Assembly (NCBI RefSeq): GCF_050920415.1
Contig: NZ_CP169309.1
Origin: Escherichia coli
Lineage (GTDB): Bacteria; Pseudomonadota; Gammaproteobacteria; Enterobacterales; Enterobacteriaceae
Direction: 5' to 3' (one strand)
Length of the DNA: 64,000 nucleotides
This document shows, piece after piece, positions 18,944 through 60,232 of the stretch. Made by a program: the position numbers and the translations under genes. The notes beneath the pieces are model-generated. The model saw only the letters and a program-made list of their open reading frames with translations. It made no database searches and was not told the origin of the DNA. The first letter of the stretch is position 1, and the number at the start of each line of letters is the position of its first letter.

Positions 18944-20677
18944 TTACATACGCTCTACTGTCTCAATACCCAGCGTATCCAGGCCCAGCTTCAGCGTCTT
19001 CGCCGTCAGTTGTGCCAGTTTCAGACGACTGTTACGCACTTCTTCGTTTTCTGCGCTGAGGATCGGGCAGTGCTCGTAGAAGCCAGAGAACAGACCGGCC
19101 AGATCGTACAGGTAAGCACACATCACGTGCGGCGTGCCTTCACGGGCAACCACAGTGAGGGTTTCTTCAAACTGCAGCAGGCGAGCTGCCAGTTGCGCTT
19201 CACGATCTTCACGGATGATTACCGGAGCTGCAGCCAGTTGCTCTTCGTCAATTTCTGCTTTACGGAACACGGACAATACACGCGTGTAAGCATACTGCAT
19301 GTATGGCGCGGTATTACCCTCAAACGCCAGCATGTTGTCCCAGTCGAAGATGTAGTCAGTGGTACGGTTTTTGGAGAGATCTGCGTATTTAACCGCACCA
19401 ATACCAACCGCATTAGCCAGTTTTTCCAGCTCATCGGCTGGCATATCCGGGTTCTTCTCTGCCACCAGACGGCGTGCGCGTTCCAGGGCTTCATCCAGCA
19501 GATCGGCCAGTTTCACCGTACCGCCAGCACGCGTTTTGAACGGTTTGCCGTCTTTGCCCAGCATCATGCCGAACATATGGTGTTCCAGCGGTACGGATTC
19601 CGGCACATAGCCTGCTTTACGGACGATCGCCCACGCCTGCATCAGGTGTTGATGCTGACGGGAGTCGATGTAATACAGCACGCGATCGGCATGCAATGTT
19701 TCATAACGATATTTCGCACAGGCGATATCAGTGGTGGTGTAGAGATAGCCACCATCTTTCTTCTGAATGATCACGCCCATCGGTTCGCCTTCCTTGTTTT
19801 TGAACTCATCAAGGAATACGACGGTTGCGCCTTCGCTTTCTACAGCCAGACCTTTGGCTTTGAGATCAGCCACGATACCCGGCAGCATCGGGTTGTACAG
19901 GCTTTCGCCCATCACGTCATCACGAGTCAGCGTCACGTTCAGACGATCGTAGGTGATCTGGTTCTGCGTCATGGTGATGTCGACCAGTTTGCGCCACATC
20001 TCACGGAAGTATTCGTCACCGCTTTGCAGTTTTACCACGTAGTTACGTGCACGCTCAGCGAACGCTTCATCTTCATCGTAATGCTTTTTCGCATCGCGGT
20101 AGAAACCTTCAAGATCAGCCAGCTCCATTTCACCGGCATTTTCCTGCTGCTGCTTTTCCAGCCATGCAATCAGCATACCGAACTGAGTGCCCCAGTCGCC
20201 GACGTGGTTTGCGCGAATCACTTTGTGACCGAGGAACTCCAGAGTACGCACTGTTGCGTCGCCAATAATGGTAGAGCGCAGGTGACCGACGTGCATCTCT
20301 TTCGCCACGTTTGGCGCAGAGTAGTCAACTACAATGGTCTGTTTTTCTGGCGTAGCAACACCGAGACGATCGGACGCCAGCGCCTGCTGAACATGTTCAG
20401 CCAGGAATGCCGGATCAAGGAAAATGTTGATAAAGCCTGGTCCGGCGATCTCAACCTTGCTGGCGATACCGTTAAGATCCAGATGAGTCAGCACCTGCTC
20501 TGCTAATTGTCGCGGTGCCATACCCAGTTTTTTAGCAACTGCCATCATGCCGTTAGCCTGATAGTCGCCGAACTGAACTTTTGCTGACTGACGAACCTGC
20601 GGTTCGCAATCCGCAGGCGCGCCTGCCGCAATCATGGCCTGACGGACTTTTTCTGAGAGAAGAGCCTGAATATTCAC
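18944..20677 (-). CDS. argS: Arginyl-tRNA synthetase
   Basis: 577 aa, [43 protein letters not shown]...; class I HVGH motif. Confidence 0.97.
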
Positions 20678-21463: not shown

Positions 21464-22219
<756 letters not shown>

Positions 22220-22264
22220 TTTTTACCGTTGCATCATGTCGCCCAATATGATGCTTGCTCGTAC

Positions 22265-22298
22265 CAGGCCCCTGCAATTTCAACAGGGGCCTTTTTTT
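22265..22298 (+). terminator. Rho-independent terminator after cutC
   Basis: AGGCCCCTG...CAGGGGCCT hairpin followed by TTTTTTTAT. Confidence 0.7.
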
Positions 22299-26323: not shown

Positions 26324-28471
<2,148 letters not shown>

Positions 28472-28523
28472 ACAAACTCCCTTTAAAATGGCCGATGGCA
28501 CCTGTCTATGATAGGTGGCAAAT

Positions 28524-29264
28524 TCAGAAAAGAGAAGATTGCTGTGGAATAGCCGGAACTGCTCCGATCTCTGGAAGTGTTTTACGTAAGCCTTCCCACA
28601 GGGTATGTACCAGTTCCGGTGCCTGGGCAATATCTGGCGTATGTAAAAAAAGATAAGGCGTAGTGGTCTGATGCCACTGCGCTAATTTTTGTAACCAAAC
28701 CTGAAACAACTCTCGGTTTTGCGTCATATCATCACTACCGATAAAACGGATCAGCGGATTTGTCGCCGTCAGCACAGCATGTACGGGAACTTTAGGTTTT
28801 TTCCGTTGAGCGTCGCGAATAGCTTCACTGTGTGGGCGTGCTGCATGAACCGGGCGGCTGTCTAAAATCACCCGATTAACGCCGCGCTGATGTAAACCGC
28901 GATTAAGTGTTTGTTCCTCTTCCCCTTTGGCGAAAAACTGTGGATGGCGGACTTCCACACCATAATTAAACTCGCCGGGAAGAGAGTCGAGAAAATGCCA
29001 AAGCGCAGGCAGATCCCGTGGGCCAAATGTGGCAGGCAGTTGCAGCCAGTATTGCCCAATGCGCGGCGCTAACGGTGACAAGCGAGTCAAAAATTCAGTT
29101 ACTAAATCATCGCAATGCCGTAATGCTGCCTGATGCGAAATGGTCGCCGGAAACTTAAAACAGAAGCGAAAATTATCTGTGGTCTGCTCACGCCAGCGCA
29201 GGACAACCTCGGATTTCGGCAGGGCGTAAAGCGTGGTGTTGCCCTCCACACAGTTAACATGACG
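28524..29264 (-). pseudogene. yecE: yecE (DUF72 family) lacking its 5' end, interrupted by the prophage insertion
   Basis: Frame matches E. coli YecE from ...RH-NCVEGNTTLYALPK to the C-terminus; the expected N-terminus (MIYIGLPQWSHPKW...) is absent and the upstream in-frame sequence has no start codon and runs into phage DNA. Confidence 0.7.
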
Positions 29265-29275
29265 GGTATTAAAGG

Positions 29276-30589
29276 CTAACTTACTGATTTTAATAGGCCT
29301 CTTGTGTCACTTTGGTGACTATGGGACATCATTGGGACATAATCTGCCAGCTTCTGATTCAGCATGGCGATCTGTTCTGCATTGCTGTCAGTCATCCATG
29401 CTCCGTATACATTGAACACCATCTGGGCACTTGCATGGCCCATCTGGCTGGCAATGAAGCTTGGATTTGCTCCGGCAGATAATGACCAGCACGCATAAGT
29501 GTGTCGTGACTGGTATGCCTTTCGATGCCTGATGCCTGCATGCTTAATGGCTGTTTCCCATGAGTCGCCAATGGAATCTACTTTGTAGATAAAACCTACC
29601 TGTTTGCTTTTTCTAACCACCTGGGGGTTAAATACGAAAGTACATTCATGATTCACTGAACGTCCATATTCACGTAGTTGAACCTTGATGTGGTGCTGCT
29701 TACCCAGTCTTGTCATTTCAGCCTGATTTTTCAGGACACTGATAGCGGGCTGGATAAGATGCACAACCCTGTTTGTACTTGCCTCAGTTTTAGGTAGAGT
29801 GAACTCGCCGAGTTTCGTATAATTACGCCTGATAGTAATTGTTCCTGCTTTCAGATCGATATCTTCCCATGCCAGGGAGACCAGTTCACCGTGACGCATT
29901 CCTGTGTACACAGCCAATGACCACAGGTTTTTCGTCTGCTGATGTCGGCAGGCATCTATCAGGCGAATAAATTCGTCACGAGTTAGCGGATCTGGTTCTG
30001 CCCTGGCTCTTTTAAGAGGCTTAATTCCCTCGAAGGGATTTGCTTCTAAGTAACCGTGATCTGCAGCAAACTGAAACATTCCAGCGATTGTCGTCATGTA
30101 ATAATTTACAGTAACGACGCTCCGTCCTTTTAGTGCTGCTTTGTTTTTCGTTGAATTCTGATACCCGGTCAGCAAATCTTTCCTGATATACAGCAATTCC
30201 TCTTTGGTTACCGATGACACCAGTCTGCTGCCTCCAATTTTCGGAACCATCGTTCTTGCAACGGATTCATAGCGATTGAATGCATTTGCAGAGATTTCCA
30301 TTCGTTTCAGATCCAGCCACTTTTCTTCAAGTTCTTTCACCGTAATTTCTTTTTTACTTACCCCAAAAGCCTGAAGGTTAGGGGAGTCAGGGAACTGTGC
30401 AGCATAATCAAAGCTTCCTGTGCGGATGGCAAAACATACCGATGTCCGCAGTTCCCCGGCGATCTTCCTGTTCTTGGCAGTGTCAGGGACACCAAGATTT
30501 TCCCTGACACGTTTACCTTTAAAATTAAACCAGATGCGTAATGTGCCGCCGTGGTTTTCGACGCCTGTTGGATATTTGACTTTATCCAT
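29276..30589 (-). CDS. int: Phage integrase (tyrosine recombinase)
   Basis: 437 aa; arm-binding N-terminus (GTLRIWFNFKGKRVRE) and C-terminal catalytic region; GGAGG RBS 6 nt upstream. Confidence 0.9.
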   Translation of the reverse strand: MDKVKYPTGVENHGGTLRIWFNFKGKRVRENLGVPDTAKNRKIAGELRTSVCFAIRTGSFDYAAQFPDSPNLQAFGVSKKEITVKELEEKWLDLKRMEISANAFNRYESVARTMVPKIGGSRLVSSVTKEELLYIRKDLLTGYQNSTKNKAALKGRSVVTVNYYMTTIAGMFQFAADHGYLEANPFEGIKPLKRARAEPDPLTRDEFIRLIDACRHQQTKNLWSLAVYTGMRHGELVSLAWEDIDLKAGTITIRRNYTKLGEFTLPKTEASTNRVVHLIQPAISVLKNQAEMTRLGKQHHIKVQLREYGRSVNHECTFVFNPQVVRKSKQVGFIYKVDSIGDSWETAIKHAGIRHRKAYQSRHTYACWSLSAGANPSFIASQMGHASAQMVFNVYGAWMTDSNAEQIAMLNQKLADYVPMMSHSHQSDTRGLLKSVS

Positions 30590-30644
30590 CGATACCTCCA
30601 GACGCCCAAGAGCGATACGAGCTTACATATTTCATGATATTAAA

Positions 30645-38517: not shown

Positions 38518-39412
38518 TCTTCTGCTCGATTTTGGACATCCGGTTGCTTATTACCCTGGGCTCGTTAAATACATGGGAAGTCCGCACGCTGTTATTTTCT
38601 TTGGTCAGATTTTTTACTGGCAGGATAAAGCACATGCAGCGGAAGGCGTACATAAAACGCGTGAAGAGATACAACACGAAACCGGACTTACATTTGAACA
38701 ACAGGCTGTAGCGCGTAAGCATCTTGTGTCCAGAGGCATTTTGGTTGAAACCAACAAGCGTCTTGAGCACAAAATGTTCTACCGTATAGATTGTGAGCGC
38801 CTTAATGAAATTATCAATGAAAACAATCAGTTTTCCCGAAATGGGGAAACCCGTTTTCGGGAAACTGTAAAACCCAATTTCGCGGAGGAGGGAAAGCCTT
38901 CACCGCGGACACGGGAAACCCCTCGCCGCGGAGAAGGGAAAACCAATTTCGATCTTACAGAGAATACAACAGAGATTACTTCAGAGAATACTACAGAGAG
39001 TAAAAACACTATTGGCGCATCCGCTGACGCGTCTGCACCAGCACGTTCTGCCCGACAGGAATATTCACCGGAATTTGAACAGGCCTGGCAGGAATATCCC
39101 AAACGTGCTGGTGGTAATTCCAAGTCAGCAGCCTTCAAAGCCTGGAAAGCCCGTATCAGGGAGGGAATAAAACCGGAGACCATGCTTGATGGTGTGAAGC
39201 GGTATGCCGCCTGGGTACGTGCTACAGGAAATACCGGCACACAGTTCGTGAAGCAGGCTGCGACGTTCTTTGGACCCGATCGTCACTTCGAAGATTACTG
39301 GCAACAGCCAGCCGCTCCCGGAGGTGGGCGACAGCGACAGGTCGATGTCCTGGCTGGCCTGGGAGCCATGTCTGACAAATTCGGTAAATCCAGTGACAAA
39401 CTGACATTCTGA
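38498..39412 (+). CDS. Putative replication initiation protein (O-like)
   Basis: 304 aa, directly upstream of the DnaC-like and DnaB-like genes; acidic and Gly/Arg-rich linker; called mainly by position. Confidence 0.5.
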   Translation: MAMRPSDLLLDFGHPVAYYPGLVKYMGSPHAVIFFGQIFYWQDKAHAAEGVHKTREEIQHETGLTFEQQAVARKHLVSRGILVETNKRLEHKMFYRIDCERLNEIINENNQFSRNGETRFRETVKPNFAEEGKPSPRTRETPRRGEGKTNFDLTENTTEITSENTTESKNTIGASADASAPARSARQEYSPEFEQAWQEYPKRAGGNSKSAAFKAWKARIREGIKPETMLDGVKRYAAWVRATGNTGTQFVKQAATFFGPDRHFEDYWQQPAAPGGGRQRQVDVLAGLGAMSDKFGKSSDKLTF

Positions 39413-39413
39413 G

Positions 39414-40301
39414 GTGACAGCGATGATGACGATTAACCAACGTGAGAAACAAACAAGACTACAGGCGCGAATGGATGAGTTACGGGCAGAGATTGCATTT
39501 GCTCAGAATGGCGAAAAGCCATGGCCTTACCGCGCCTGCCGGGAATCTGAAGGGGTTGGATGCTGCGAAAAACACGGTAAATATCGTACGCATATACTGG
39601 TGTGGGATGATCGGCAGGGGGGCGCTGTCTCAAAAATTTCCCGCTGTCCGGAGTGTCTGGTGGATGAAATGGATGTGACACATCGGACTCTGGTTGCAAT
39701 GAAAGCTGATGTGCTGATTGAGAATGCTGGTGTTGCCTGTAGGTTTCGCGACTGTGAGTTTGAAAACTATCAGGAGATTAACTCTGATGCAGCCAGAAAT
39801 CTTGCTGCCTGCCGCCGCTATGCAGAGAGCTGGGAGGATGTTCTGGCTAACGGTACCAGTCTTGTTCTGACAGGCAGTTGTGGTACCGGAAAAAATCATC
39901 TGGCTGTGGCTATGGCAAAACACATCATCCGTAACCATCTGGCCAGTGTGGAGATTACTGATGTGATGCGCCTTACCCGTGCTGTGAAAAACTGCTGGCG
40001 GAATGACAGCGAAAAAACAGCGGATGAAGTTATTGAGCATTATGCGTCATTGGATTTGCTGATCATCGACGAAGTCGGCGTTCAGTTTGGCAGCGCGGCT
40101 GAAATGGCTATTTTGCAGGAAATTATCAATGCCCGGTACGAAAGCATCCTGCCCACCATCCTGATCAGCAACCTTTCACCGGAAGAGTTGTGGGCGTTCA
40201 TCAGCCCCCGCATTGCCGACAGGATCACAGACGGGGGACGCAACTGGTTGTCGTTTAACTGGCCCAGCTATCGTGCGCATATTGGAGGTGTGGCTGCATG
40301 A
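39414..40301 (+). CDS. DnaC/IstB-like AAA+ helicase loader
   Basis: Walker A GSCGTGKNHLAVA and Walker B LLIIDEVG. Confidence 0.8.
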   Translation: MTAMMTINQREKQTRLQARMDELRAEIAFAQNGEKPWPYRACRESEGVGCCEKHGKYRTHILVWDDRQGGAVSKISRCPECLVDEMDVTHRTLVAMKADVLIENAGVACRFRDCEFENYQEINSDAARNLAACRRYAESWEDVLANGTSLVLTGSCGTGKNHLAVAMAKHIIRNHLASVEITDVMRLTRAVKNCWRNDSEKTADEVIEHYASLDLLIIDEVGVQFGSAAEMAILQEIINARYESILPTILISNLSPEELWAFISPRIADRITDGGRNWLSFNWPSYRAHIGGVAA

Positions 40302-41689
40302 CCACTCCAGTATGGCGTAACGATGATCTGGAAGGCGCTGTCATTGGCGCGTTTTTTCTGCGTGGGGCAGATCATGAAGTGATGGATATTCTGGCCACAC
40401 TGCCAGCGGACGTTTTTTCTGTACGAGCGTATAGGGATATCTACACAGGCATCTGCCGACAGGCTCGTGTTTCAGGTGTGATTGATCCTGTGCTGCTGTG
40501 TAATGAAATGCCGGAACTTGCTCCGGTGATTACTGATACCGGGCGTAAAACCTGGGTGAAGTCTTCACTGGAGCACTATGTTGCAGCGTTGCGGCGCAAT
40601 GCTGCATTGCGTGATGCAGAAAAAACACTGAATGAGGCGCTGCAGAAATTACGTGATGCGCATACCTGTGAAGCAGCTGAAGATGTCCTGAAGGATGCGC
40701 AGAACATGATGGCTTCATTGTCGACGGAAAAGGGCATTATTCAGCCGATACATATTGATGATGTGCTTCCGGAGGTGGTTGAGCGTGTTGAATGCCGGAA
40801 TCAGGGACTGGAGAAATCCAGAACGTTGATGACCGGTATTGAGGAGCTGGACGCAAAGACAGGTGGCATGGAGCCCGGCGACCTGGTGTTCATTGCGGCT
40901 CGTCCGTCAATGGGCAAAACCGAACTGGCGCTGGATATCATCGACAAGGTGACTGAGCAGGGGCATGGTGTTCTTCTGTTCACAATGGAAATGGCGAACA
41001 TCCAGATTGGTGAACGCATGGTATCTGCGGCTGGAGGAATGCCGGTATCACGCCTGAAATCTGTCACTCACTTTGAAGATGAAGACTGGGCGCGTTTCTC
41101 ACAAGGGGTGGGACGGATGACCGGTCGCAATATCTGGATGGTGGACCAGGCGAATCTGACCATTGATGAGATATGCGCAACAACGAAACACCACCTGATT
41201 AAACATCCGGAAACGGCGCTGGTGGTGGTTGATTATCTCGGGCTGATAAAAACCCGGAGCACGGGGCGTCATGACCTTGCCGTGGGTGAAATCTCAAAGG
41301 GGCTTAAAGGCCTGGCAAAATCCGGTGGTTTTCCGTTGATTGCGCTGAGCCAGCTCTCCCGCGGTGTGGAGTCCAGGCCCAATAAACGCCCCATGAACTC
41401 AGACCTGAAAAATTCCGGAGAAATAGAGGCGGATGCAGACATCATTCTGATGCTTTACAGGGATGAAGTGTACAACCCGGATACGCAGGCCAGGGGCATC
41501 GCAGAAATCAATATCACGAAACAACGTAACGGTTCTCTGGGGACAATTTACCGGCGTTTTTATAACGGACATTTTCTGCCTGTAGACCAGGAAAGCGCAC
41601 AGGTTCTTTCCACCCCAATGCAGCCGCCTCAGCCGCGCAGATACAGCAATAAACGAACCGACAGTAGTAAGATGGAGCGTTTCTTTTGA
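40298..41689 (+). CDS. DnaB-family replicative helicase
   Basis: 463 aa; Walker A ARPSMGKTELALD; DnaB C-terminal RecA-like domain (LIALSQLSRGVESR). Confidence 0.85.
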   Translation: MTTPVWRNDDLEGAVIGAFFLRGADHEVMDILATLPADVFSVRAYRDIYTGICRQARVSGVIDPVLLCNEMPELAPVITDTGRKTWVKSSLEHYVAALRRNAALRDAEKTLNEALQKLRDAHTCEAAEDVLKDAQNMMASLSTEKGIIQPIHIDDVLPEVVERVECRNQGLEKSRTLMTGIEELDAKTGGMEPGDLVFIAARPSMGKTELALDIIDKVTEQGHGVLLFTMEMANIQIGERMVSAAGGMPVSRLKSVTHFEDEDWARFSQGVGRMTGRNIWMVDQANLTIDEICATTKHHLIKHPETALVVVDYLGLIKTRSTGRHDLAVGEISKGLKGLAKSGGFPLIALSQLSRGVESRPNKRPMNSDLKNSGEIEADADIILMLYRDEVYNPDTQARGIAEINITKQRNGSLGTIYRRFYNGHFLPVDQESAQVLSTPMQPPQPRRYSNKRTDSSKMERFF

Positions 41690-41943
41690 ACAACCAGACA
41701 ATGACTTTTACCCCTGAACAATTACGCAAACAGGCGCAGGAAATGCTGCGACAGGCGGAACAACTGGAAAAATCAGGCGTAACAAAAGATGCCATTCGTC
41801 GGGATATGGTACCCGCGCTCAGAGAACTGATGCAGGCAAAACACCGCGCACAAAAAGCGGTGGATGAGCTGGTGGATTGTGTGGCAGAGCTGGAAACAAA
41901 AGTTGGAAAATTTGAAAAACTGGTGCAGGAGGTACTGCGCTGA
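41686..41943 (+). CDS. Hypothetical coiled-coil protein (85 aa)
   Basis: ORF between the helicase and Q genes, overlapping both ends. Confidence 0.5.
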
Positions 41944-42308
41944 TGCGTGATATTCAGATGGTTCTTGAGCGTTGGGGGGCGTGGGTGGCAAATAACCACG
42001 AAGATGTTACCTGGTCGTCGATTGCTGCGGGATTCAAAGGACTGATTCCGTCAAAGGTTAAGTCACGTCCGCAATGTTGTGACGATGACGCGATGATCAT
42101 TTGTGGTTGCATGGCTCGTCTGAAAAAGAACAACCGTGACTTGCATGATCTGCTCGTGGATTATTACGTTGGGGGAATGACTTTTATGGCGCTTGCAAGG
42201 AAACATGGACGTTCAGATTGCTGGGTTGGTCGTTTGTTGCAAAAAGCAGAGGGGATCGTGGCTGGTATGTTAATGATGTTGGATGTCAAACTAGAGATGG
42301 AATATTAA
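41943..42308 (+). CDS. Late-gene antiterminator Q (QuuD/phage-82-like family)
   Basis: 121 aa, [34 protein letters not shown]...[16 protein letters not shown]; resembles E. coli DLP12 QuuD as recalled. Confidence 0.75.
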
Positions 42309-42475
42309 TTTAATTCTCATAGAATTCTTTTCTTTATGAGGGGCGAATAATGCCCCTAAACTAGAATATTATAGCTGCCTCATTATCTGGGCAGCATTAG
42401 GTTGTTGAGTGGTTTTCGCTATTAAAGCAATCATTCAAAAGGTATAAAATATGAAGCTGGGTTCTATATTAACGC

Positions 42476-43663
42476 TTACTCCATGCTAAGTGAATCCTGA
42501 TAGCGCTTAAATGCCTCCGCGAAAGCTAGAGCAGCATCAGCATTTGATACCATGTATTCTTCTGTAATGCCTGTTTGGGACTGGAAATATAACTTTCCAT
42601 AAATGCAAATTGGGATTTGATAGTTATCTTTAAATCGTCGGTCTGGTGAGCCATCTTTATTTGTTTTTGCCCATGTATGCCCAGCTATGCTGGCATCACT
42701 CGGAACACCATCCTCTTCATGGAACCCTTGATGCTGCGCATTAATTTGTAATTCCCGTAAGTCAATCAGAGCAAATGCCCCATCGGGGCGAGGAATTACA
42801 GCAATACCCGGATAAAGCAATATATCGTCGCCATTGACATTTTCAAATCGCATTGCTCTTCCAGTAAAACGAATTAGATCTGTTGAAGCGAAATCAAATA
42901 CGACTGGATGACGATCAACTGCTCGTGTAGCTAACGTCCTTTCTGCAAACTGATCTATAGCTTTATCTGCGGTAATATCCCATTTTTTGATACTTGATTT
43001 TAAAATATCGAAAGCACGAATCATTGCTGCATAAGCCCGCTGTGAGGAATCGCTGGTTTCGAAATTAATGACGATTTTAGTGTTATCTTCCCAGGATACA
43101 AGACGAGATACTTCTGCTTGTATTTGTGGTAGCGTTGCTTCAAGTTCTGCAATGCGACGTTTATAAAACCATCGAAACAGGCTTGATTTACGTCGAGCCA
43201 ATTCACTCTTTTGTCTTGATTCTTCTGCAAGAGCCTCTTGTAAGTCAGATGCTATTTCCGCTCTTTGTTCTCGTGCTTTAACGATCAAGTCTCGTAAAGG
43301 TAAAAGAGATGTACTTGTCAAGGCCTCTACTGAGGCACTGGAGATTTCATTCATGCCTGTTTGTGGCATGTACATTTTTGCGTTTGATGGGGTGTTGTCT
43401 GAAATTAACTCGGGTGCATCAATATGAGATTCTACAGACGACGGATTTAGCTGAATGGTTGTGGATGGTTTGTCTTTGTATGGTAAACGAGGGGATGTAT
43501 ACGATAAACCAGATCCTGGTAACCCTAGAGTTGCTTTAATTCCTTTTTGGTTAACATTAACTGTGGCTCCGGGGACACCAAAACTTGCGCTTACCCCATG
43601 TTTACCGATGTTAAGGCGTACTCCGGGGAAAATGGTAAAAGTTTGTCTGAAGCGAAGAGACAT
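42476..43663 (-). CDS. Reverse-strand moron: 395-aa protein with DUF4236-like N-terminus, central coiled coil and unknown C-terminal domain
   Basis: N-terminus MSLRFRQTFTIFPGVRLNIGKHGVSASFGVPGATVNVNQKGIKATLGLPGSGLSYT matches the DUF4236 pattern; AGGGA RBS; oriented against late transcription; AT-rich flanks. Confidence 0.75.
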   Translation of the reverse strand: MSLRFRQTFTIFPGVRLNIGKHGVSASFGVPGATVNVNQKGIKATLGLPGSGLSYTSPRLPYKDKPSTTIQLNPSSVESHIDAPELISDNTPSNAKMYMPQTGMNEISSASVEALTSTSLLPLRDLIVKAREQRAEIASDLQEALAEESRQKSELARRKSSLFRWFYKRRIAELEATLPQIQAEVSRLVSWEDNTKIVINFETSDSSQRAYAAMIRAFDILKSSIKKWDITADKAIDQFAERTLATRAVDRHPVVFDFASTDLIRFTGRAMRFENVNGDDILLYPGIAVIPRPDGAFALIDLRELQINAQHQGFHEEDGVPSDASIAGHTWAKTNKDGSPDRRFKDNYQIPICIYGKLYFQSQTGITEEYMVSNADAALAFAEAFKRYQDSLSME

Positions 43664-43696
43664 AAGATAATCCCTGTGTAGTAATGTCTAAAGTTA

Positions 43697-43717
43697 CATT
43701 CCATACTGGAATGTAAT
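43697..43717. promoter_or_regulatory. Perfect 9-3-9 palindrome upstream of the moron gene (candidate operator)
   Basis: TACATTCCA-tac-TGGAATGTA located 34 nt upstream of the start codon at 43663. Confidence 0.45.
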
Positions 43718-43855
43718 ACTGCGATGAGACACGAGGCTCATTAAGGATTTTGGCATTTTGCTGACATAAATTCTATAAAAATTATGGTGATAAACGTTTT
43801 ACAATCGTAAAAAAACAAATATGCTGTTAAGAGTGGTACTACGCCACACAGCTTA

Positions 43856-43881
43856 AACCCGCCGATGAGCGGGTTTTTTTG
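43856..43881 (+). terminator. Rho-independent terminator
   Basis: ACCCGC-cgatga-GCGGGT followed by TTTTTTT. Confidence 0.65.
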
Positions 43882-44037
43882 TGCACAGAAAACCCCCAGC
43901 TAGGCTGGGGGTTCCGGAAAGCTTTCAGCTTTGAGCCAGTTATTAAAACCCCTTTTGATTTGTTAAAACACCTTGCGGTCTGGCAACTTCTTAACTCACT
44001 TATTGTTTCCACCCATGTTTTTGGATACCTGCTGTAG

Positions 44038-44074
44038 CTGTCAGATTAGCGCGATAATCTGACAGCTTTTTTTT
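44038..44074 (+). terminator. Strong rho-independent terminator
   Basis: 11-bp stem CTGTCAGATTA...TAATCTGACAG followed by T8. Confidence 0.75.
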
Positions 44075-44363
44075 ACAACGAATCCTTCTGATCTGCTTTT
44101 GCGGGGCTTTTTTGTATCCGCTCCATGCCCGGCGTATAAGCGGAGGTTGGTCAGTTTTCTAAAAATTGAAATACCTCACAATTCAGCCAGTTAATGGTTG
44201 TTTGTCTGGCGAAGAGTTTGTAAATAAAAAAACGCATGGTGAATCCCCCTAAGCGGCGGGGCGAATCAGCAGTCAGTTCTGGGATAATCGCGGGTTCGTA
44301 TGCTGATGCCGGACTCACCGGGAGGCACCCGGCACCATGCATCATGGTCATCCCCTTGTATGA

Positions 44364-44389
44364 TACCCCTCTCCGGAGGGGTATTTTTT
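44364..44389 (+). terminator. Rho-independent terminator
   Basis: TACCCCTC-tccg-GAGGGGTA followed by TTTTTT. Confidence 0.7.
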
Positions 44390-44822
44390 GGATAAAAAAG
44401 CCCGCGCTGGGAGGCACGGGCGGCAAGGAATAAAACGTGAAGAAATTTTCACAGGCGCATAATAATCCGATGTTGCCAGATTTTGCAACTGCATCATCTG
44501 GTTATTATGTGAGCTGGAAAATCAGATTCTGTATGGACTGAAGCCATGCTGTTATTCAGGGCCAAAGAACGGACTTTTTCTTCCGCCTTTCAGGTAACGA
44601 TTAATGAGAAAAAGACTGAAATGCCCCCTCGGGGAGGAGGATAGTAGAAAAAAGAACCCGCCAGCAAAAATATTGGGGGGATGAACAGCTTTCGCTACTC
44701 TGGTTGCTGGCGGGTATAGCTCCTCATGAATAAGAATGTCGCGGTATTTTTTAATGGAAATGAGAATCATTGTCAACTGATTGCGTGTGTTGTCTTCATA
44801 CATGACTGGTAAAGGTGATTCA

Positions 44823-44853
44823 GGCCATCAGAGTTTTGCTGATGGCCTTTTTT
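44823..44853 (+). terminator. Terminator immediately upstream of the holin start (candidate tR'-like late terminator)
   Basis: GGCCATCAG-agttttg-CTGATGGCC followed by TTTTTT; lies inside the extended holin ORF of the ORF track. Confidence 0.6.
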
Positions 44854-44886
44854 CTTTCCGGTAGCACAGGTCTGTCGGGGCGGGAT

Positions 44887-45102
44887 ATGTATCAGATGGA
44901 AAAAATATCAACAGGCATTGCCTACGGCACCTCCGCAGGCAGTGCTGGCTACTGGTTTTTACAGTGGCTTGATCAGGTCAGCCCGTCACAGTGGGCTGCG
45001 ATTGGTGTACTGGGAAGTCTGGTTCTGGGCTTTCTGACTTATCTGACGAATCTGTACTTCAAAATCAGAGAAGACAGAAGAAAGGCTGCGAGAGGAGAGT
45101 AA
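44887..45102 (+). CDS. Holin (EssD/phage-21 S-like, class II)
   Basis: [71 protein letters not shown], 71 aa, closely resembles DLP12 EssD as recalled. Confidence 0.85.
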
Positions 45103-45106
45103 TATA

Positions 45107-45457
45107 ATGGTCCAAAACTATGAAATGATTGTGAAAGGGATCCGCAATTTTGAGAATAAAGTTACGGTAACTTTAGCATTACAGGACAAAGAACGCTTTG
45201 ACGGTGAAATTTTTGACCTGGACATCTCGCTGGACCGTGTTGAAGGTGCCGCGCTGGAGTTTTATGAGGCAGTAGCCAGAAGGAGCATCAGACAGGTCTT
45301 CCTGGATGTTGCTGCCGGGTTATGTGAAGGGGATGAGCAGTCGCCGGAAAAGCGCCCCGTAATTTTAGAGGCGCAGAATGTGTGGATAACCTACAAAGGA
45401 AAGCTACCAGGAAGAATTACTGGTTCTCTGAAGACTCCTCCGGAATCACAACCTTAA
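45107..45457 (+). CDS. Hypothetical protein (116 aa) inserted between holin and endolysin
   Basis: ORF MVQNYEMIVKGIRNFENKVTV... with no TM segment or signal peptide. Confidence 0.5.
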   Translation: MVQNYEMIVKGIRNFENKVTVTLALQDKERFDGEIFDLDISLDRVEGAALEFYEAVARRSIRQVFLDVAAGLCEGDEQSPEKRPVILEAQNVWITYKGKLPGRITGSLKTPPESQP

Positions 45458-45520
45458 GTCACTGACCGGAACAGATAAACCTGTCCGTGGGCAGAAACCG
45501 ATAAATCCTGATAAATATCC

Positions 45521-46054
45521 ATGAACGCAAAAATCAGATACGGCCTGTCGGCTGCCGTTCTGGCACTGATTGCCGTCGGTGCTCCCGCGCCTGATATTCT
45601 CGACCAGTTTCTGGATGAAAAAGAAGGTAACCACACAACGGCATACCGCGATGGTTCCGGCATCTGGACCATCTGTCGGGGTGCCACGATGGTGGATGGA
45701 AAACCCGTTTTTCCCGGTATGAAACTGTCGAAGGAAAAATGCGACCAGGTTAACGCCATTGAACGTGATAAGGCGCTGGCATGGGTGGAGCGCAATATTA
45801 AAGTACCACTGACCGAACCACAGAAAGCGGGTATAGCGTCATTTTGTCCCTATAACATTGGCCCCGGTAAGTGTTTCCCGTCGACGTTTTATAAGCGGCT
45901 GAATGCCGGTGATCGTAAGGGTGCATGCGAGGCGATTCGCTGGTGGATAAAAGATGGTGGGCGCGATTGCCGCATACGTTCAAATAACTGCTATGGACAG
46001 GTTATTCGTCGTGACCAGGAAAGCGCATTAGCCTGTTGGGGGATAGATCAGTGA
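45521..46054 (+). CDS. SAR-endolysin (lysozyme with N-terminal signal-anchor-release domain)
   Basis: 177 aa; hydrophobic N-terminus [18 protein letters not shown] followed by a lysozyme-like domain. Confidence 0.8.
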
Positions 46055-46515
46055 GCAGAGTCGCCGCGATTATTTATGCTCTGGTTATCTGCATCATCGT
46101 CTGCCTGTCGTGGGCGGTCAATCATTACCGTGATAACGCCATCGCCTACAAAGAACAGCGTGATAAAAAAGTCAGTGAGCTGAAGCAGGCGATCGCCACC
46201 ATCGCTGACATGCAGCAGCGTCAGCGTGATGTTGCTGCGCTCGATGCAAAGTACTCGAGAGAATTAGCCAATGCGAAAGCTGAAAATGAAACTCTGCGCG
46301 CTGATGTTGCCGCTGGTCGTCGTCGGTTGCACATCAAAGCAGTCTGTCAGTCAGTGCGTGAAGCCACCACCGCCTCCGGCGTGGATAATGCAACCAGCCC
46401 CCGACTGGCAGACACCGCTGAACGGGATTATTTCACCCTCAGAGAGCGGCTGATGACGATGCAGATGCAACTGGAAGGGGCACAGGAGTATATCCGCACT
46501 CAGTGCATTAAGTAG
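46051..46515 (+). CDS. Spanin inner-membrane subunit Rz (i-spanin)
   Basis: GTG start overlapping the endolysin stop; N-terminal TM then coiled coil. Confidence 0.75.
46271..46453 (+). CDS. Spanin outer-membrane lipoprotein Rz1 (o-spanin), embedded in the +1 frame of Rz
   Basis: Lipobox LVVVGC followed by a proline-rich segment PPPPPAW; entirely nested in Rz. Confidence 0.75.
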
Positions 46516-46557
46516 CCTTTTTATCGTGGTAAACATTTCGCAGGGTATGAGGTATTT

Positions 46558-46908
46558 ATGCCATCACGAATCCCACGCGCCTGCCGTAAGCGTGGATGTG
46601 CAGGTACAACCACAGACAGTTCTGGTTACTGCGATAAACATCGTGGCGAAGGATGGGTACAGCATCAACGCGGACTGAGCCGCCACCAGCGTGGCTATGG
46701 CTCGAAATGGGATGCCATACGTGCGCGCATACTGAAGCGTGATAATCATCTGTGTCAGAACTGCCTGCGCAATGGGAGAGCCGTTGAAGCCAGAACTGTG
46801 GACCACATCATTCCGAAAGCTCATGGTGGCACGGATGCAGACAGTAACCTGCAGAGTCTGTGCTGGCCCTGTCATAAAGCAAAAACAGCGCGCGAACGCA
46901 TCAATTGA
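46558..46908 (+). CDS. HNH endonuclease (terminase-associated)
   Basis: 116 aa; Cys-rich; HNH motif DHIIPKAHGGTDADSNLQSLCWPCH. Confidence 0.8.
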   Translation: MPSRIPRACRKRGCAGTTTDSSGYCDKHRGEGWVQHQRGLSRHQRGYGSKWDAIRARILKRDNHLCQNCLRNGRAVEARTVDHIIPKAHGGTDADSNLQSLCWPCHKAKTARERIN

Positions 46909-47056
46909 TAACAGTTCCCATCTGTAGGGGAGGGGCGGGTCAAATCTCTGCAACCCTGGCTGCTCAGTACCGCCGCCTGACCCTTCCTCACATCGCCGCA
47001 GGTTCGAAAACTTTTTTTTGGAAATGTGAACAAACGATTGATAGGTAAGACCGATT

Positions 47057-47539
47057 ATGTCAGGACCTCCGAAAACCCCGCCACGCCTGCATTTGATACG
47101 AGGCAACCCCTCAAAGCGTCCCGTTAAAGACCACAAAAAAACCGCTAAAAAGGATGAAAAAGGTCTTCCTAAAATTCCGCAGCATTTAGGGGCTCAGGGG
47201 AAGTACTGGTTCAGGCGAATGGCGGAAGAGCTGAATGCGGAAGGGATCATTTCTCAGCTTGATGCACGTGCGCTCGAGTTGCTGGTGGAAGCCTACACCG
47301 AATATCGGCATCACTGCGAAACACTCGATGTTGAGGGGTATACTTACCGCACGGAAACGCAGAGCGGTGATGTACTGATTAAGGCGCACCCCGCGGCGGC
47401 AATGAAAGCGGATGCCTGGAAGCGGATCCGGGCAATGCTTGCAGAGTTTGGTATGTCACCGGCAAGCCGGGCTAAAGTAAATATCGCCGGACCGGATGAT
47501 GTTGATCCGCTGGCGGAGCTTTTAAAAGCGAGAGACTGA
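47057..47539 (+). CDS. Terminase small subunit
   Basis: 160 aa, directly upstream of and overlapping the large terminase; basic N-terminus. Confidence 0.75.
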   Translation: MSGPPKTPPRLHLIRGNPSKRPVKDHKKTAKKDEKGLPKIPQHLGAQGKYWFRRMAEELNAEGIISQLDARALELLVEAYTEYRHHCETLDVEGYTYRTETQSGDVLIKAHPAAAMKADAWKRIRAMLAEFGMSPASRAKVNIAGPDDVDPLAELLKARD

Positions 47540-49296
47540 TGGCAAAAGTGGCTGACGGGATCCGCTACGCCGAACGTGTTGTTGCAGGAGAAATTGTTGC
47601 TGGCGAATTTGTCCGCCTGGCCTGCCAGCGTTTTCTTGATGATCTGAAGTACGGCGAAGAGCGGGGGATTTATTTCAGTGAACCCCGTGCGCAGCACATC
47701 CTGAATTTCTACAAATTTGTGCCTCATGTAAAAGGGGCGCTGGCAGGCCAGCCCATTGAGTTGATGGACTGGCATGTATTTATCCTCATTAATATTTTTG
47801 GTTTTGTCATTCCGCTGGTCAATGAAGAGACCGGGGAAGTTGTCATGCGCAGCGATGGCAGCGGACGTCCGGTGATGGTGCGCCGGTTCCGGACGGCGTA
47901 CAACGAAGTCGCCCGTAAAAACGCAAAATCAACTCTGTCATCGGGTATCGGCCTGTATATGACGGGGGCAGATGGTGAAGGCGGAGCTGAGGTGTATTCA
48001 GCCGCAACCACGCGTGACCAGGCCAGAATCGTGTTTGAAGACGCCAAAAATATGGTCAGAAAAGCCCGGTCGACACTCGGGCGGTTGTTTGATTTCAACA
48101 AGCTGGCGATTTACCAGGAGCAGAGCGCATCAAAATTTGAACCGCTTTCTTCGGATGCAAACAACCTGGATGGTCTGAACATTCACTGCGCCATTATTGA
48201 TGAGCTGCATGCACATAAAACCCGTGACGTGTGGGACGTTCTGGAAACGGCAACCGGTGCTCGTCTGCAGTCCCTTTTATTTGGTATCACCACGGCAGGG
48301 TTTAACAAGGAAGGGATTTGTTACGAGCAGCGTGATTACGCCATCAAGGTATTGCGTGGCTATAACAGCGACGTGGAGGGCGCGGTAAAAGACGACTCCT
48401 ACTTTGCGATTATTTACACCCTCGATGAGGGAGATGATCCGTTTGATGAAACGGTCTGGCAGAAAGCGAATCCCGGCCTGGGCATCTGTAAACGCTGGGA
48501 TGATCTGCGTCGCTTGGCGAAAAAAGCGAAAGAACAGGTCTCTGCTCGGGTGAATTTTTTTACCAAACACATGAATGTGTGGGTAACAGCAGAGTCTGCC
48601 TGGATGGACATGATTAAGTGGGAGAAGTGCGAATACATTGCCCCACGACATGAGCTGAAAACGTATCCCATGTGGGTCGGCGTTGACCTTGCTCATAAGA
48701 TTGATATCTGTGCGGCGGCAAAACTCTGGCGAACGGATAACGGGCATGTTCATGCCGATTTTAAATTCTGGCTTCCGGAAGGACGGCTGGAACGATGCTC
48801 GCGGCAGCAGGCAGAACTTTACCGGAAGTGGGCGGAGATGGATAAGCTGATTCTGACGGATGGTGATGTTATCGATCATGCTCAGATAAAAAGTGACTTA
48901 CTGGAATGGATTGGTGGTGAAAACCTCAGGGAACTGGGATTTGACCCGTGGAGCGCGATGCAGTTCAGCCTGGCACTGGCTGAAGAAGGGATACCGCTGG
49001 TGGAGGTTCCGCAGACGGTTCGCAATCTGTCAGAGGCCATGAAGGAAACGGAATCACTGGTCTATGCCGGGCGTTTCCATCACAGCAATCATCCGGTCAT
49101 GAACTGGATGATGTCTAACGTTACGGTAAAACCGGACAAAAACGACAATATCTTCCCGAATAAATCCACGCTGGAAGCCAAAATCGACGGTCCTGTTGCG
49201 ATGTTTACAGCAATGAGCCGGATGCTGGTCAATGGCGGTGAACCGGAGCCGGATCTGTCTGAGCATCTGGTCAGCGTTGGTATCCGCTCGCTTTAA
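47539..49296 (+). CDS. Terminase large subunit
   Basis: 585 aa; ATPase N-terminus and nuclease C-terminus arrangement. Confidence 0.85.
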
Positions 49297-49307
49297 CCGA
49301 GGTCATT

Positions 49308-49490
49308 ATGTTTCTGATAATTCTCACGCCACTGGTGGGCGTGCTGGGGGCGCTTTTGCTGTCGTATGGCACATGGCTGATTTATCCCCCGGCAGGTTTT
49401 GTTGTTGCCGGGGGGCTGTGCCTGTGCTGGTCGTGGCTGGTTGCGCGTTATCTCGATCGTGGTCACCGGGTCGCCTCCGGAGGTGAGTAA
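49308..49490 (+). CDS. Small hydrophobic protein (60 aa)
   Basis: Two predicted TM helices; tightly packed between the terminase and portal genes. Confidence 0.35.
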
Positions 49491-50731
49491 TGTTTTTCCA
49501 GGGGCTTTTTCAACGTAAAAATAATACCCCCGTCACAACGCCCGGGATGCTTGCGGAAGAACTTGGGTTGTCATACGACACCTATACCGGAAAGCGGATC
49601 AGCAGTCAGCGGGCCATGCGGCTGACGGCGGTGTATTCCTGCGTCAGGGTGCTGGCGGAGTCTGTTGGTATGCTGCCCTGCAGCCTCTACAAAATCACCG
49701 GCACTCTTAAAACACGGGCAGTGGATGAACGACTGCATAAGCTGATTTCGGCAAAACCCAATGGCTACATGACACCGCAGGAATTCTGGGAGCTGGTTAT
49801 CGTCTGCCTGTGTCTGCGGGGTAATTTTTACGCTTACAAGGTGAAGGCGCTGGGAGAAGTGGTGGAGCTTCTTCCTATAGATCCGGGATGTGTGGAGCCG
49901 AAGCTGAACTGTCAGTGGCAGCCGGTTTATCAGGTGACATTTCCGGATGGTTCTGTGGATGTGCTGACTCAGGATGAAATCTGGCATGTGCGTACTCTGA
50001 CGCTGGACGGACTGGTCGGGCTGAATCCCATTGCGTATGCGCGTGAGGCCATTTCACTGGCAGCGGCAACCGAGGAGCACGGTGCCAGGTTGTTTGGCAA
50101 CGGTGCAGTGACATCCGGTGTGTTGCGTACGGATCAACAACTTTCTGATCAGGCTTATGCGCGTATCAAAAAGGATTTTGAGGAACGGCATGTCGGGCTG
50201 GGAAATTCTCATCGTCCGATGATTCTGGAAATGGGGCTGGACTGGAAAACGGTGGCACTGAATGCCGAGGACAGCCAGTTCCTGGAAACCCGCAAGTTTC
50301 AGCTGGAAGAAATCTGTCGCCTGTTCCGCGTGCCGCTGCATATGGTGCAGAACACCGATCGCGCCACCTTCAACAATATTGAAGAGCTGGGGCTTGGTTT
50401 CATTAACTATTCCCTTGTGCCGTATCTGACCCGTATTGAGCAACGGATCAATACAGGGCTGGTCAGGGAGAGCAAGCAGGGGAAGTTTTACGCCAAATTT
50501 AATGCCGGAGCATTGTTGCGTGGCGACATGAAATCCCGCTTTGAAGCGTATGCCACGGGGATCAACTGGGGGATTTATTCCCCTAATGACTGCCGTGATC
50601 TGGAAGATATGAATCCCAGACCGGGTGGTGATGTGTATCTGACACCGATGAACATGACCACCAGTCCCTCTGCTGGCGATGACAACGGTAAGAAAAAGGA
50701 GAGTGGAGATGCAGACAAAACAGCGTCTTGA
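49490..50731 (+). CDS. Portal protein (HK97-family)
   Basis: 413 aa; position after the terminase. Confidence 0.8.
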   Translation: MFFQGLFQRKNNTPVTTPGMLAEELGLSYDTYTGKRISSQRAMRLTAVYSCVRVLAESVGMLPCSLYKITGTLKTRAVDERLHKLISAKPNGYMTPQEFWELVIVCLCLRGNFYAYKVKALGEVVELLPIDPGCVEPKLNCQWQPVYQVTFPDGSVDVLTQDEIWHVRTLTLDGLVGLNPIAYAREAISLAAATEEHGARLFGNGAVTSGVLRTDQQLSDQAYARIKKDFEERHVGLGNSHRPMILEMGLDWKTVALNAEDSQFLETRKFQLEEICRLFRVPLHMVQNTDRATFNNIEELGLGFINYSLVPYLTRIEQRINTGLVRESKQGKFYAKFNAGALLRGDMKSRFEAYATGINWGIYSPNDCRDLEDMNPRPGGDVYLTPMNMTTSPSAGDDNGKKKESGDADKTAS

Positions 50732-51359
50732 TATACCGCTGAACCTGAAATCCGTCAGTGATTCCGGGGAATTTGAAGGTTACGGTTCTGTTTTTGGTGT
50801 TAAGGACAGCCACGATGATGTGGTGGTCCCCGGTGCCTTTACCACAACACTCCAGAAATGGAGCGAAAAAAAGGCGCTGCCTGCGTTGCTCTGGCAGCAC
50901 CGCATGGATGAGCCCATCGGTGTGTACACCGAAATGAAAGAAGATGATGTCGGGCTTTATGTCAGGGGGCGATTACTCGTTGATGATGATCCCCTGGCAA
51001 AACGTGCACATGCCCATATGAAGGCCGGTTCTTTAACCGGCCTTTCTATTGGCTACATCCTGAAAGACTGGGAGTACGACCGTGAAAAAGGGGTATTCCT
51101 GCTGAAAGAGATCGACTTGTGGGAGGTCAGTCTGGTGACGTTTCCTTCCAATGATGAGGCACGCATCAGCGATGTGAAAAATGCGCTGGCGCGTGGGGAG
51201 ATCCCTGATCAGAAAATTATTGAGCGAGTCCTGCGCGATGTTGGACTCTCGCGAACCCAGGCCAAAGCATTCATGGCCGGGGGATATGGCGCTTTATCCC
51301 TGCGTGATGCTGAGGATGTGGATGCCGCACTGAATGCACTGAAAAATCTTAAATTTTAA
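50709..51359 (+). CDS. Prohead maturation protease (HK97-family)
   Basis: MQTKQRLDIPLNLKSVSDSGEFEGYGSVFGVKDSHDDVVVPGAF...; AGGAG RBS; overlaps the portal 3' end. Confidence 0.8.
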   Translation: MQTKQRLDIPLNLKSVSDSGEFEGYGSVFGVKDSHDDVVVPGAFTTTLQKWSEKKALPALLWQHRMDEPIGVYTEMKEDDVGLYVRGRLLVDDDPLAKRAHAHMKAGSLTGLSIGYILKDWEYDREKGVFLLKEIDLWEVSLVTFPSNDEARISDVKNALARGEIPDQKIIERVLRDVGLSRTQAKAFMAGGYGALSLRDAEDVDAALNALKNLKF

Positions 51360-51373
51360 CCAGGAGAAAAATA

Positions 51374-52597
51374 ATGGCTGACATTAAAGATGTGGAGCAG
51401 GTCGCGCAGGAGCTGCAGCAGAAGTTTGACGATTTTAAGGCAAAAAACGACAAGCGCATTGACGCGATCGAACAGGAAAAAGGCAAGCTGGCCGAACAGG
51501 TGGAAAGCCTGAACGGGCAAATCAGCGAGCTGGAGAACCTGAAAAGCGACCTGGAAAAAGAGCTGGCAGACATCAAGCGTCCGGCAGGCGGCACGCAAAA
51601 TAAAGTTGCCAGTGAACACAAAGAAGCGTTTATCGGATTTATGCGCAAGGGGCGTGAAGACGGCCTGCGTGAGCTGGAGCGTAAGGCGCTGCAGGTGGGC
51701 AATGATGAAGATGGCGGTTATGCCATTCCGGAAGAACTGGATCGCACCATTCTGACGCTACTGAAAGATGAGGTGGTGATGCGCCAGGAAGCCACTGTGA
51801 TCACCCTCGGGGGCTCGGATTATAAAAAACTGGTGAATCTGGGCGGCACAACGTCCGGATGGGTGGGGGAAACGGATGCACGTCCGGAAACCGCCACCTC
51901 AAAACTGGGGCTGATTGAACCCTTTATGGGGGAAATCTACGGCAACCCGCAGGCCACCCAGAAAATGCTCGATGACGCTTTCTTCAATGTGGAAGACTGG
52001 ATCAACAGTGAGCTGGCGCTGGAATTTGCCGAACAGGAAGAAATTGCCTTTACCAGTGGCGACGGCAGCAAAAAACCAAAAGGTTTTCTGGCTTATGAGT
52101 CCACCGATGAAGATGACAAGACCCGTGCGTTTGGCAAACTTCAGCACATCGCTTCCGGTGCGGCTTCTGGCGTGACTGCCGATGCGATCATTAAACTGAT
52201 TTACACCCTGCGCAAGGCGCATCGCAGCGGCGCGAAGTTCATGATGAATAACAGCAGCCTGTTTGCCATTCGCCTGCTGAAGGATAACGACGGAAATTAT
52301 CTGTGGCGTCCGGGCATTGAGCTGGGTCAGCCTTCTTCACTGGCGGGGTATGGCATCGTTGAGAATGAGCAGATGCCGGATATTGCTGCCGATGCAAAAG
52401 CTATTGCGTTTGGTAACTTCAAACGCGGCTATACCATCGTTGATCGTATCGGCACCCGCATCCTGCGCGATCCTTACACCAACAAACCGTTTGTGGGCTT
52501 TTATACAACCAAACGAACCGGCGGTATGCTGGTGGATTCTCAGGCGATTAAGCTGATGAAGATCGGTGCTGCAACCCGCCAGAAAGCCGCTGCGTAA
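51374..52597 (+). CDS. Major capsid protein (HK97-fold)
   Basis: 407 aa; N-terminal coiled-coil scaffold-like delta domain followed by the capsid domain. Confidence 0.8.
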   Translation: MADIKDVEQVAQELQQKFDDFKAKNDKRIDAIEQEKGKLAEQVESLNGQISELENLKSDLEKELADIKRPAGGTQNKVASEHKEAFIGFMRKGREDGLRELERKALQVGNDEDGGYAIPEELDRTILTLLKDEVVMRQEATVITLGGSDYKKLVNLGGTTSGWVGETDARPETATSKLGLIEPFMGEIYGNPQATQKMLDDAFFNVEDWINSELALEFAEQEEIAFTSGDGSKKPKGFLAYESTDEDDKTRAFGKLQHIASGAASGVTADAIIKLIYTLRKAHRSGAKFMMNNSSLFAIRLLKDNDGNYLWRPGIELGQPSSLAGYGIVENEQMPDIAADAKAIAFGNFKRGYTIVDRIGTRILRDPYTNKPFVGFYTTKRTGGMLVDSQAIKLMKIGAATRQKAAA

Positions 52598-52641
52598 TGC
52601 AGTTTTTTATGCCCGCACAGTGTTGCGGGCAGGAGTTTCTG

Positions 52642-52959: not shown

Positions 52960-52967
52960 GAGGAACC

Positions 52968-54093: not shown

Positions 54094-54111
54094 GGTCGTT
54101 AATGATTTTAC

Positions 54112-54140
54112 CCACCCGCCGCTGGCGGGTTTTTTTATTT
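54112..54140 (+). terminator. Terminator/attenuator upstream of the major tail protein gene
   Basis: ACCCGCC-gctg-GCGGGT followed by TTTTTTTATTTT. Confidence 0.6.
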
Positions 54141-54153
54141 TCAGGAGACGAGT

Positions 54154-55244: not shown

Positions 55245-55255
55245 CGCTTCCGGGG

Positions 55256-55546: not shown

Positions 55547-55604
55547 GATAATTTTTTAATCGTTTTGAAATTGAATGCTTTACTCAAAGTCAGGAGGATT
55601 AATC

Positions 55605-55946: not shown

Positions 55947-55955
55947 TTATCATCT

Positions 55956-55983: not shown

Positions 55984-55995
55984 GGGGTAAAGTAA

Positions 55996-60228: not shown

Positions 60229-60232
60229 ACCC

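Follow-up and report, generated by a model that had tools for sequence, protein, structure and literature searches.

The left end of a phiP27-type prophage inside the yecE gene of Escherichia coli

What becomes of a protein-coding gene when a temperate phage uses its interior as an attachment (att) site, and how exactly can the border between host and phage be drawn? The question is raised by a stretch of 64,000 nucleotides of the Escherichia coli contig NZ_CP169309.1 (assembly GCF_050920415.1), which we call the window, where a phage integrase gene (int) lies directly beside the reading frame of yecE. Positions 1–29257 of the window are E. coli chromosome, with host genes that include torYZ, cmoB, cmoA, yecN and yecE (the last four on the minus strand), and prophage DNA fills the rest of the window from 29258 onward. 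We consider it very likely that positions 29251–29269 are the left attachment site (attL) of a lambdoid prophage that entered yecE by integrase-mediated recombination, splitting and inactivating the gene in a manner that excision would reverse. As an attL inside a gene, made by a known integrase family in a known site, it is a textbook case, and the finding of an earlier reading of this DNA, made from the letters alone and referred to here as the sequence-only reading, is both correct and already known to the field. The features around the junction are as follows.

28524–29257, minus strand: host-derived 3′ part of yecE, codons 30–272 and the stop codon, with no native start or promoter
29251–29257: 7-bp common core CAGTTAA, putative overlap and site of strand exchange
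29258–29269: core-type arm C′ of the phage, CATGACGGGTAT
29276–30589, minus strand: tyrosine integrase of phiP27 type, 437 amino acids
29322–29343, plus strand: pair of arm-type repeats, TGGGACATCAT and TGGGACATAAT, spaced 11 bp apart, lying within the 3′ coding region of int in the P′ arm
30645–30881, minus strand: excisionase (xis), 78 amino acids
29258–64000, plus strand: prophage body, comprising the early region, replication genes, Q, lysis genes, P27-like terminase, portal and capsid genes and a lambda-like tail up to J, where it runs off the end of the window

The position of the junction was determined by aligning the window to the uninterrupted yecE of two strains, KGu016 and 98192. 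Identity is complete (78/78) up to window position 29257, falls to 8 of 12 positions over 29258–29269, and beyond 29269 there is no similarity. Positions 28900–29700 also served as a BLAST query to the collection used throughout, which comprises 5,426 complete E. coli genomes. Host DNA was matched across 5,418 genomes. In most genomes the match ends at query position 358–370, that is at window 29257–29269, and in 504 genomes it carries on into the integrase gene, showing that an int of this family abuts yecE. The junction is thus narrowed to 29251–29269, within the interval of 29240–29290 where the sequence-only reading had placed it, inside yecE. That reading had recognized YecE only from about residue 28, and this agrees with the translation of the minus-strand frame, which ends at a stop codon at 28524: the host-coded protein begins at N30 and is preceded by phage-encoded R-H-V that mimics R27-H28-F29. 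The TAG stop codon of int (29276–29278) is 18 bp away from where full identity with the host ends and 6 bp away from where the partial homology ends, and the previously estimated distance of about 12 bp was a fair one.

The alignment to an intact locus that the earlier reading had proposed as a check also defines the att core. In a three-way comparison of attL in the window, the intact bacterial site (attB) of KGu016 and the far junction (attR) of the related prophage in strain MFDS1022581 (NZ_CP169399.1), the only sequence common to all three is CAGTTAA, which takes in two bases at the end of codon F29, the whole of N30 and two bases at the start of C31. The three sites read as follows.

attL (window): CCCTCCACA-CAGTTAA-CATGACGGGTAT
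attB: CCCTCCACA-CAGTTAA-AGTGGCGGGCAT
attR (MFDS1022581): AGTCCTGTCATG-CAGTTAA-AGTGGCGGGCAT

The phage arm C′ is identical to the host B′ side, AGTGGCGGGCAT, at 8 of its 12 bases, and because of this resemblance the phage encodes T-R-H-V where YecE has A-R-H-F. The phage site (attP) as reconstructed from these junctions, GTCATG-CAGTTAA-CATGAC, is a perfect inverted repeat about the 7-bp spacer, and the corresponding repeat in attB, CCACA-CAGTTAA-AGTGG, is weaker. A short overlap flanked by inverted core-type sites is, to judge from these sequences, the classic layout of an integrase core site. The record of phage phiP27, deposited from attL to attR, annotates one 11-mer, CACGCAGTTAA, with the 7-bp core inside it, at both of its ends, and the window junction CACACAGTTAA, followed by CATGACGGGTATTAAAG, compares with a phiP27 left end of CACGCAGTTAA followed by the same CATGACGGGTATTAAAG; the junction is therefore the phiP27 att core lying in yecE. 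A contiguous homologous attP, GTCACG-CAGTTGA-AATGAC, is found directly after the int stop codon in the free phage CharmingMan, whose sequence is that of a virion genome and whose int region is 79.7% identical to that of the window.

The arm-type sites point in the same direction. Two copies of TGGGACA are paired at 29322–29339, a motif that otherwise occurs at a background of 0.2 per kb across the window, and they are likely binding sites for the N-terminal arm-binding domain of the integrase (Int). Pairs of the TGGGACA type are present at the equivalent place of the P′ arm in phiP27 and CharmingMan, and the P arms of the MFDS1022581 prophage, phiP27 and CharmingMan carry two to three TGGGRCA pairs each. 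The pairs are thus kept in four phages, at a distance from the core of 65–82 bp in P′ and 120–185 bp in P. An imperfect inverted repeat also surrounds the int stop codon (29257–29273 and 29289–29305), weak at 76% complementarity.

The enzymes encoded next to the junction are those of phiP27. Int is identical to phiP27 Int at 423 of 436 residues (97%), with equal length and no gaps, and has Pfam matches to Arm-DNA-bind_2 at residues 7–70 (E 2e-23) and to Phage_integrase at residues 202–395 (E 1e-17). The excisionase (Xis) gene lies 55 bp from the beginning of int, and the protein is identical to phiP27 Xis at 77 of 77 residues, and is also annotated as excisionase in the matching RefSeq genome MFDS1022581. 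Over the 1.6 kb from the junction through xis, the window is 96.3% identical to phiP27, a phage that carries Shiga toxin 2e (Stx2e), and 97.1% identical to PhiR49_2 from strain ECOR13. By its Int, its Xis and its junction, the integration module is a phiP27-type yecE int/xis/att module. With a catalytic domain, an arm-binding domain with corresponding repeats, and inverted core sites, Int has the sequence features of a lambda-type heterobivalent tyrosine integrase. The module shares with the Int/Xis system of phage lambda the 7-bp overlap, inverted core-type sites, arm repeats on both arms, separate arm-binding and catalytic domains in Int, the position of xis immediately upstream of int, and that of int beside attL in the prophage. 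It differs from lambda in that its attB is intragenic whereas that of lambda is intergenic (gal-bio), in the greater length of its Int (437 amino acids, Arm-DNA-bind_2 family), and in core and arm sequences that are unrelated to those of lambda.

What remains of yecE can be described with equal precision. The retained 243 residues differ from an intact allele at two positions only, and thus the retained codons show no decay. The first 29 codons are absent from the 64-kb window, as seen from a search with the 5′ fragment, and a full 272-codon frame with the native N-terminus MIYIGLPQW... was not found in it. Upstream of the junction the frame continues into the phage.

29247–29309, minus strand: extension of the yecE frame into phage DNA, with 19 phage codons back to a TGA at 29307–29309

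These 19 phage codons include no ATG, GTG or TTG in the yecE frame. The first canonical start is the GTG at 29247–29249, the codon of Val32, from which the product would be 241 amino acids long. The earlier statement that integration did not restore the N-terminus thus stands, with 29 codons gone and no canonical start supplied by the phage arm on the int side, and the accompanying statement that the frame has no start codon is right for its phage-derived part and wrong for its host part, where Val32 GTG is available.

The missing segment appears to be an important one. Among 22 enterobacterial orthologues (75–83% identity, all of about 272 amino acids), 16 of the first 29 residues are invariant, namely G5, L6, P7, Q8, W9, H11, W14, R16, L17, G18, I19, L22, Y25, A26, R27 and F29. 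An AlphaFold2 model of YecE (mean predicted local distance difference test score, pLDDT, 75; predicted template modelling score, pTM, 0.74) has eight beta-strands, with beta-1 at residues 3–7, helices at 12–16 and 22–26, and beta-2 at 31–34. The Pfam DUF72 match of the intact protein spans residues 21–249, and the solved DUF72 protein EF0366 (PDB 1vpy) aligns starting at YecE residue 1. Removal of residues 1–29 would therefore take away the first beta-alpha unit of the predicted barrel. With no start codon coming from the phage and with beta-1 and the first helices gone, yecE is very probably inactive as long as the prophage remains in place, as far as the structural model and conservation can tell. 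We know of no phenotype or activity of YecE. A homologue, Tm1631, has been proposed in a computational study to be an endonuclease-IV-like DNA-lesion nuclease (PMC3828134).

The reciprocal junction, which the sequence-only reading expected downstream of the window, is seen in MFDS1022581. This genome matches window positions 8900–37432 at 99.94%, a stretch made up of host flank and the leftmost 8 kb of the prophage, and the other end of its prophage lies about 46 kb away, adjoining yecD. There the 5′ fragment of yecE, next to yecD, is fused to five phage codons (MIYIGLPQWSHPKWVRLGITSLEEYARHFNC-MTGLF*). Within the window, searches with the attL 23-mer, the yecE 5′ fragment and the conserved P arm (up to three mismatches) gave no further match, and hence the attR of this strain is not in the window. 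We predict that it has the TGGGRCA pairs of the P arm, then GTCAYG-CAGTTAA-AGTGGCGGGCATACTC, and after this the codons of yecE from 29 down to 1, with yecD behind them.

Taken together, these features fit a simple mechanism. The phage site GTCATG-CAGTTAA-CATGAC would be recombined by Int with CCACA-CAGTTAA-AGTGG inside yecE, the catalytic and core-binding domains acting on the inverted core-type sites around the 7-bp overlap and the N-terminal domain presumably holding the paired TGGGRCA repeats of the P and P′ arms. Strand exchange in CAGTTAA would split yecE between codons 29 and 31, leaving the 243-codon 3′ part beside int and moving the promoter-proximal 31 codons, together with yecD, to an attR some 46 kb off and beyond the window. 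The gene would then be off for as long as the prophage stays, and excision by Int and Xis would be expected to restore it exactly. Several observations weigh against this account. The attR of this strain itself lies outside the window, the reciprocal junction is seen only in MFDS1022581, and the prophage of that genome diverges from the window from about 37.4 kb onward. A simple scan for promoters and terminators over 27900–31000 gave nothing above shuffled expectation. In MFDS1022581, RefSeq annotates the yecE remnant as an intact, non-pseudogene DUF72 protein of 256 amino acids (WP_100733831.1; locus 19625–20395) that starts at a non-canonical ATT, equivalent to window 29292–29294, and overlaps the 3′ end of int.

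The prophage might instead be a fixed and defective remnant, in which case the disruption of yecE would be permanent and not the reversible outcome of integration. This has something in its favor, as the prophage at the near-identical junction of MFDS1022581 is decayed, carrying an IS66 insertion and frameshifts in several of its late genes, and the window itself shows only a part of the prophage. However, int and xis are full length in the window and match those of phiP27, the open reading frames (ORFs) for Q, holin, endolysin and Rz are intact, and the late region (46554–63997) aligns without a break, at 99.2% identity, to a prophage whose genes in that stretch are annotated as intact. PhiR49_2, which has the same type of integrase, is deposited as a phage genome. 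We regard a defective remnant as unlikely, and continue to favor excision-reversible integration.

An alternative of a different kind accepts the integration and questions its consequence, holding that yecE was remodelled by it: translation of a chimeric YecE would start at the ATT at 29292–29294 or at Val32 GTG, on transcripts that read through from int, and the protein would retain some function. The RefSeq annotation just described speaks for a chimera, as do the undegraded state of the 243 retained codons and the lack of room for a terminator between int and the yecE remnant, where the scan found none. A related integrase subtype is a further argument. In strain PI12 (NZ_CP074005.1, locus 640–760) a second integrase/att subtype occupies exactly the same position of yecE, with 82% nucleotide identity to the integrase of the window, and its phage arm provides a true in-frame ATG that overlaps the int stop codon (ATGA), leading to a predicted product of 259 amino acids, MRMIKISKLVHH-ARHFNC.... 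On the other side, where PI12 has ATG ATA the window has CCT ATT and therefore no canonical start, and ATT start codons are very rare in E. coli. The likeness of the IKISKL segment between the two subtypes arises because it overlaps the conserved 3′ end of int, read in another frame. A recent integration predicts an undegraded remnant equally well. In a MAFFT alignment the phage-coded leader lies against YecE residues 17–28 and not against beta-1, and so either product would still be without beta-1 and the first helix, including the invariant G5, L6, P7, Q8, W9, H11, W14 and R16. A functional chimera in this strain is thus quite improbable, and inactivation of yecE remains the reading that we prefer.

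The PI12 subtype deserves attention in its own right. It resembles the module of the window in its position in yecE, in the int gene that abuts the yecE remnant, and in paired arm repeats (TGGGGCA), and it differs in having 21 bp in common with attB (CACGCAGTTAAAGTGGCGGGC) as against 7–11 bp, an Int of 419 amino acids, and the in-frame ATG over the int stop. It is putatively the same as the subtype, described by Nakamura et al. (2021; PMC8112680), of prophages with and without Stx that occupy yecE and have an att of 21 bp, and its integrase type is also found in the Klebsiella phages RothC/D and Mulock. The statement that the N-terminus is not restored therefore holds for the phiP27-type subtype of the window and not for every phage at yecE. 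There is an outside chance that this phage end is built to replace the 5′ end of yecE, with the overlap of ATG and int stop giving a translationally coupled chimera that has a 12-residue phage N-terminus in the 21-bp-att subtype, and with the subtype of the window as a decayed or ATT-initiated version of the same device. If such chimeras were made and were active, or were dominant-negative toward the putative DNA-lesion nuclease, yecE would be rewired under the phage int promoter and not inactivated. As for a break in yecE caused by deletion or recombination with a neighboring prophage, as suggested by genomes in which yecE is cut elsewhere beside phage genes (for example H30, with a match ending at query position 313 by bet), it is scarcely credible here, where the breakpoint matches, to the base, both the annotated att core of phiP27 and the junctions of 292 further genomes, and where the same 7-bp core recurs in the reciprocal junction.

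The remainder of the prophage in the window places it among the relatives of phages that convert their hosts to Shiga toxin production. The features that matter for this comparison are the following.

41943–42308: Q
42476–43663, minus strand: ORF of 395 amino acids in the Q-to-lysis slot, matching phrog_17982 (unknown function; E 3e-172)
44815–46515: holin, an ORF of unknown function, endolysin and Rz

In Stx-converting phages stxA and stxB are located between Q and the lysis genes, and this arrangement was not found here. Searches of the window by tblastn with the Stx2e A and B subunits of phiP27 gave best E-values of 1.2 and 0.04, from short unrelated stretches, and the slot between Q and holin holds no ORF of a suitable size for stx (Stx1 was not queried separately). 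The slot is instead occupied by the 395-amino-acid ORF, which is unrelated, and by matches to two small RNA (sRNA) families, so that the previous description of it as free of stx is borne out. PADLOC found no defence-system match among the cargo ORFs of this slot, and no transfer RNA (tRNA) gene is present in the window. The two Rfam matches, STnc490 and STnc100 (43891–44005 and 44205–44393, plus strand), fall in an ORF-poor gap of about 1.1 kb before holin, which is probably the leader region of the late operon.

The element is a mosaic. The segments from int to the early genes, the replication genes and the portal and capsid genes resemble phiP27 (93–97%). The late region at 46554–63997, with packaging, head and tail genes, is 99.2% identical to a prophage with a different integrase that resides at mlrA (yehV) in the enterotoxigenic E. 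coli (ETEC) strain E21845/O/A (NZ_CP076272.1), and its best match in other strains (99.2–99.3%) sits at mlrA. Phages that are almost identical otherwise have clearly exchanged their integration modules here. The whole prophage of the window occurs in no complete E. coli genome of the collection, the best matches covering 82% of 39001–64000, and the part not common to its closest relatives is the Q-to-lysis segment (within 37432–46550). In the early-right region, next to genes of the ash/Rha type, there is a tandem duplication with a 653-bp period (36785–37731, plus strand), each copy of which has an isrK match and a match to C4 antisense RNA (36828–37016 and 37481–37669). This suggests that a P1/P7-like module of antirepressor control has been duplicated. 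In the host flank, the cutC region gives a full-length match to the sRNA MicL (365 bits; 21991–22298, plus strand) at its expected chromosomal position.

Among described phages, phiP27 (Stx2e; NC_003356/AJ298298; Recktenwald and Schmidt, 2002) comes close, as it occupies the same position in yecE, has the core within its 11-bp att sequence and a nearly identical P′ arm, is 96.6% identical in nucleotides to the window over its positions 1–2409, and is similar at 93–97% in its early, replication and portal/capsid genes. In contrast to phiP27, the prophage of the window is without stxA/B and without the ileZ and argO tRNAs, has another lysis cassette, and carries a lambda-like non-contractile tail (gpJ) where that of phiP27 is Mu-like and contractile. 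In the phiP27 lysogen attL and attR have 11 bp in common, as against 7 bp in the MFDS1022581 relative. PhiR49_2 of ECOR13 (PV340570.1) is an stx-free lambdoid phage that agrees with the window in its int/xis module, in its left end (TCCACACAGTTAACATGACGGG), in heads of HK97-like type and in a lambda-like tail. It differs from the window in the cargo of its early and Q-to-lysis regions and in having, downstream of Q, three tRNAs that the window lacks.

The yecE gene had been named by the sequence-only reading as a known site of lambdoid and Stx phages, a statement that accords with the near identity of Int and Xis to those of phiP27 and with the literature. It appears in a list of Stx-phage insertion sites in a review that cites the phiP27 paper (PMC8065619), it harbors Stx1a, Stx2a, Stx2d and non-Stx phages in O145:H28 (PMC8112680), and Stx2e prophages are reported there as well (PMC8705337). 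In our collection a 160-bp spanning probe finds attB intact in 4903 of the 5426 genomes, which leaves about 9.6% interrupted, and attL of the type seen in the window is present in 292 (5.4%; 161-bp probe, at least 80% covered). It is commonplace for phages with this family of integrase to occupy yecE.

The result is mainly one of correct annotation: the left boundary of the prophage is fixed to the base and its integration module is identified as phiP27-type. It also carries a caveat for databases, as the automatic annotation presents the truncated gene as one for an intact DUF72 protein, its N-terminus taken from the phage, and so hides the disruption of yecE. The element is an stx-negative relative of Stx-converting phages, residing in a site that is used by Stx1a, Stx2a, Stx2d and Stx2e phages. 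An occupied yecE is relevant to typing schemes for STEC, the E. coli that produce Shiga toxin, where these are based on insertion-site occupancy, and it bears on the ability of an Stx phage that targets yecE to lysogenise this strain at the site it prefers.

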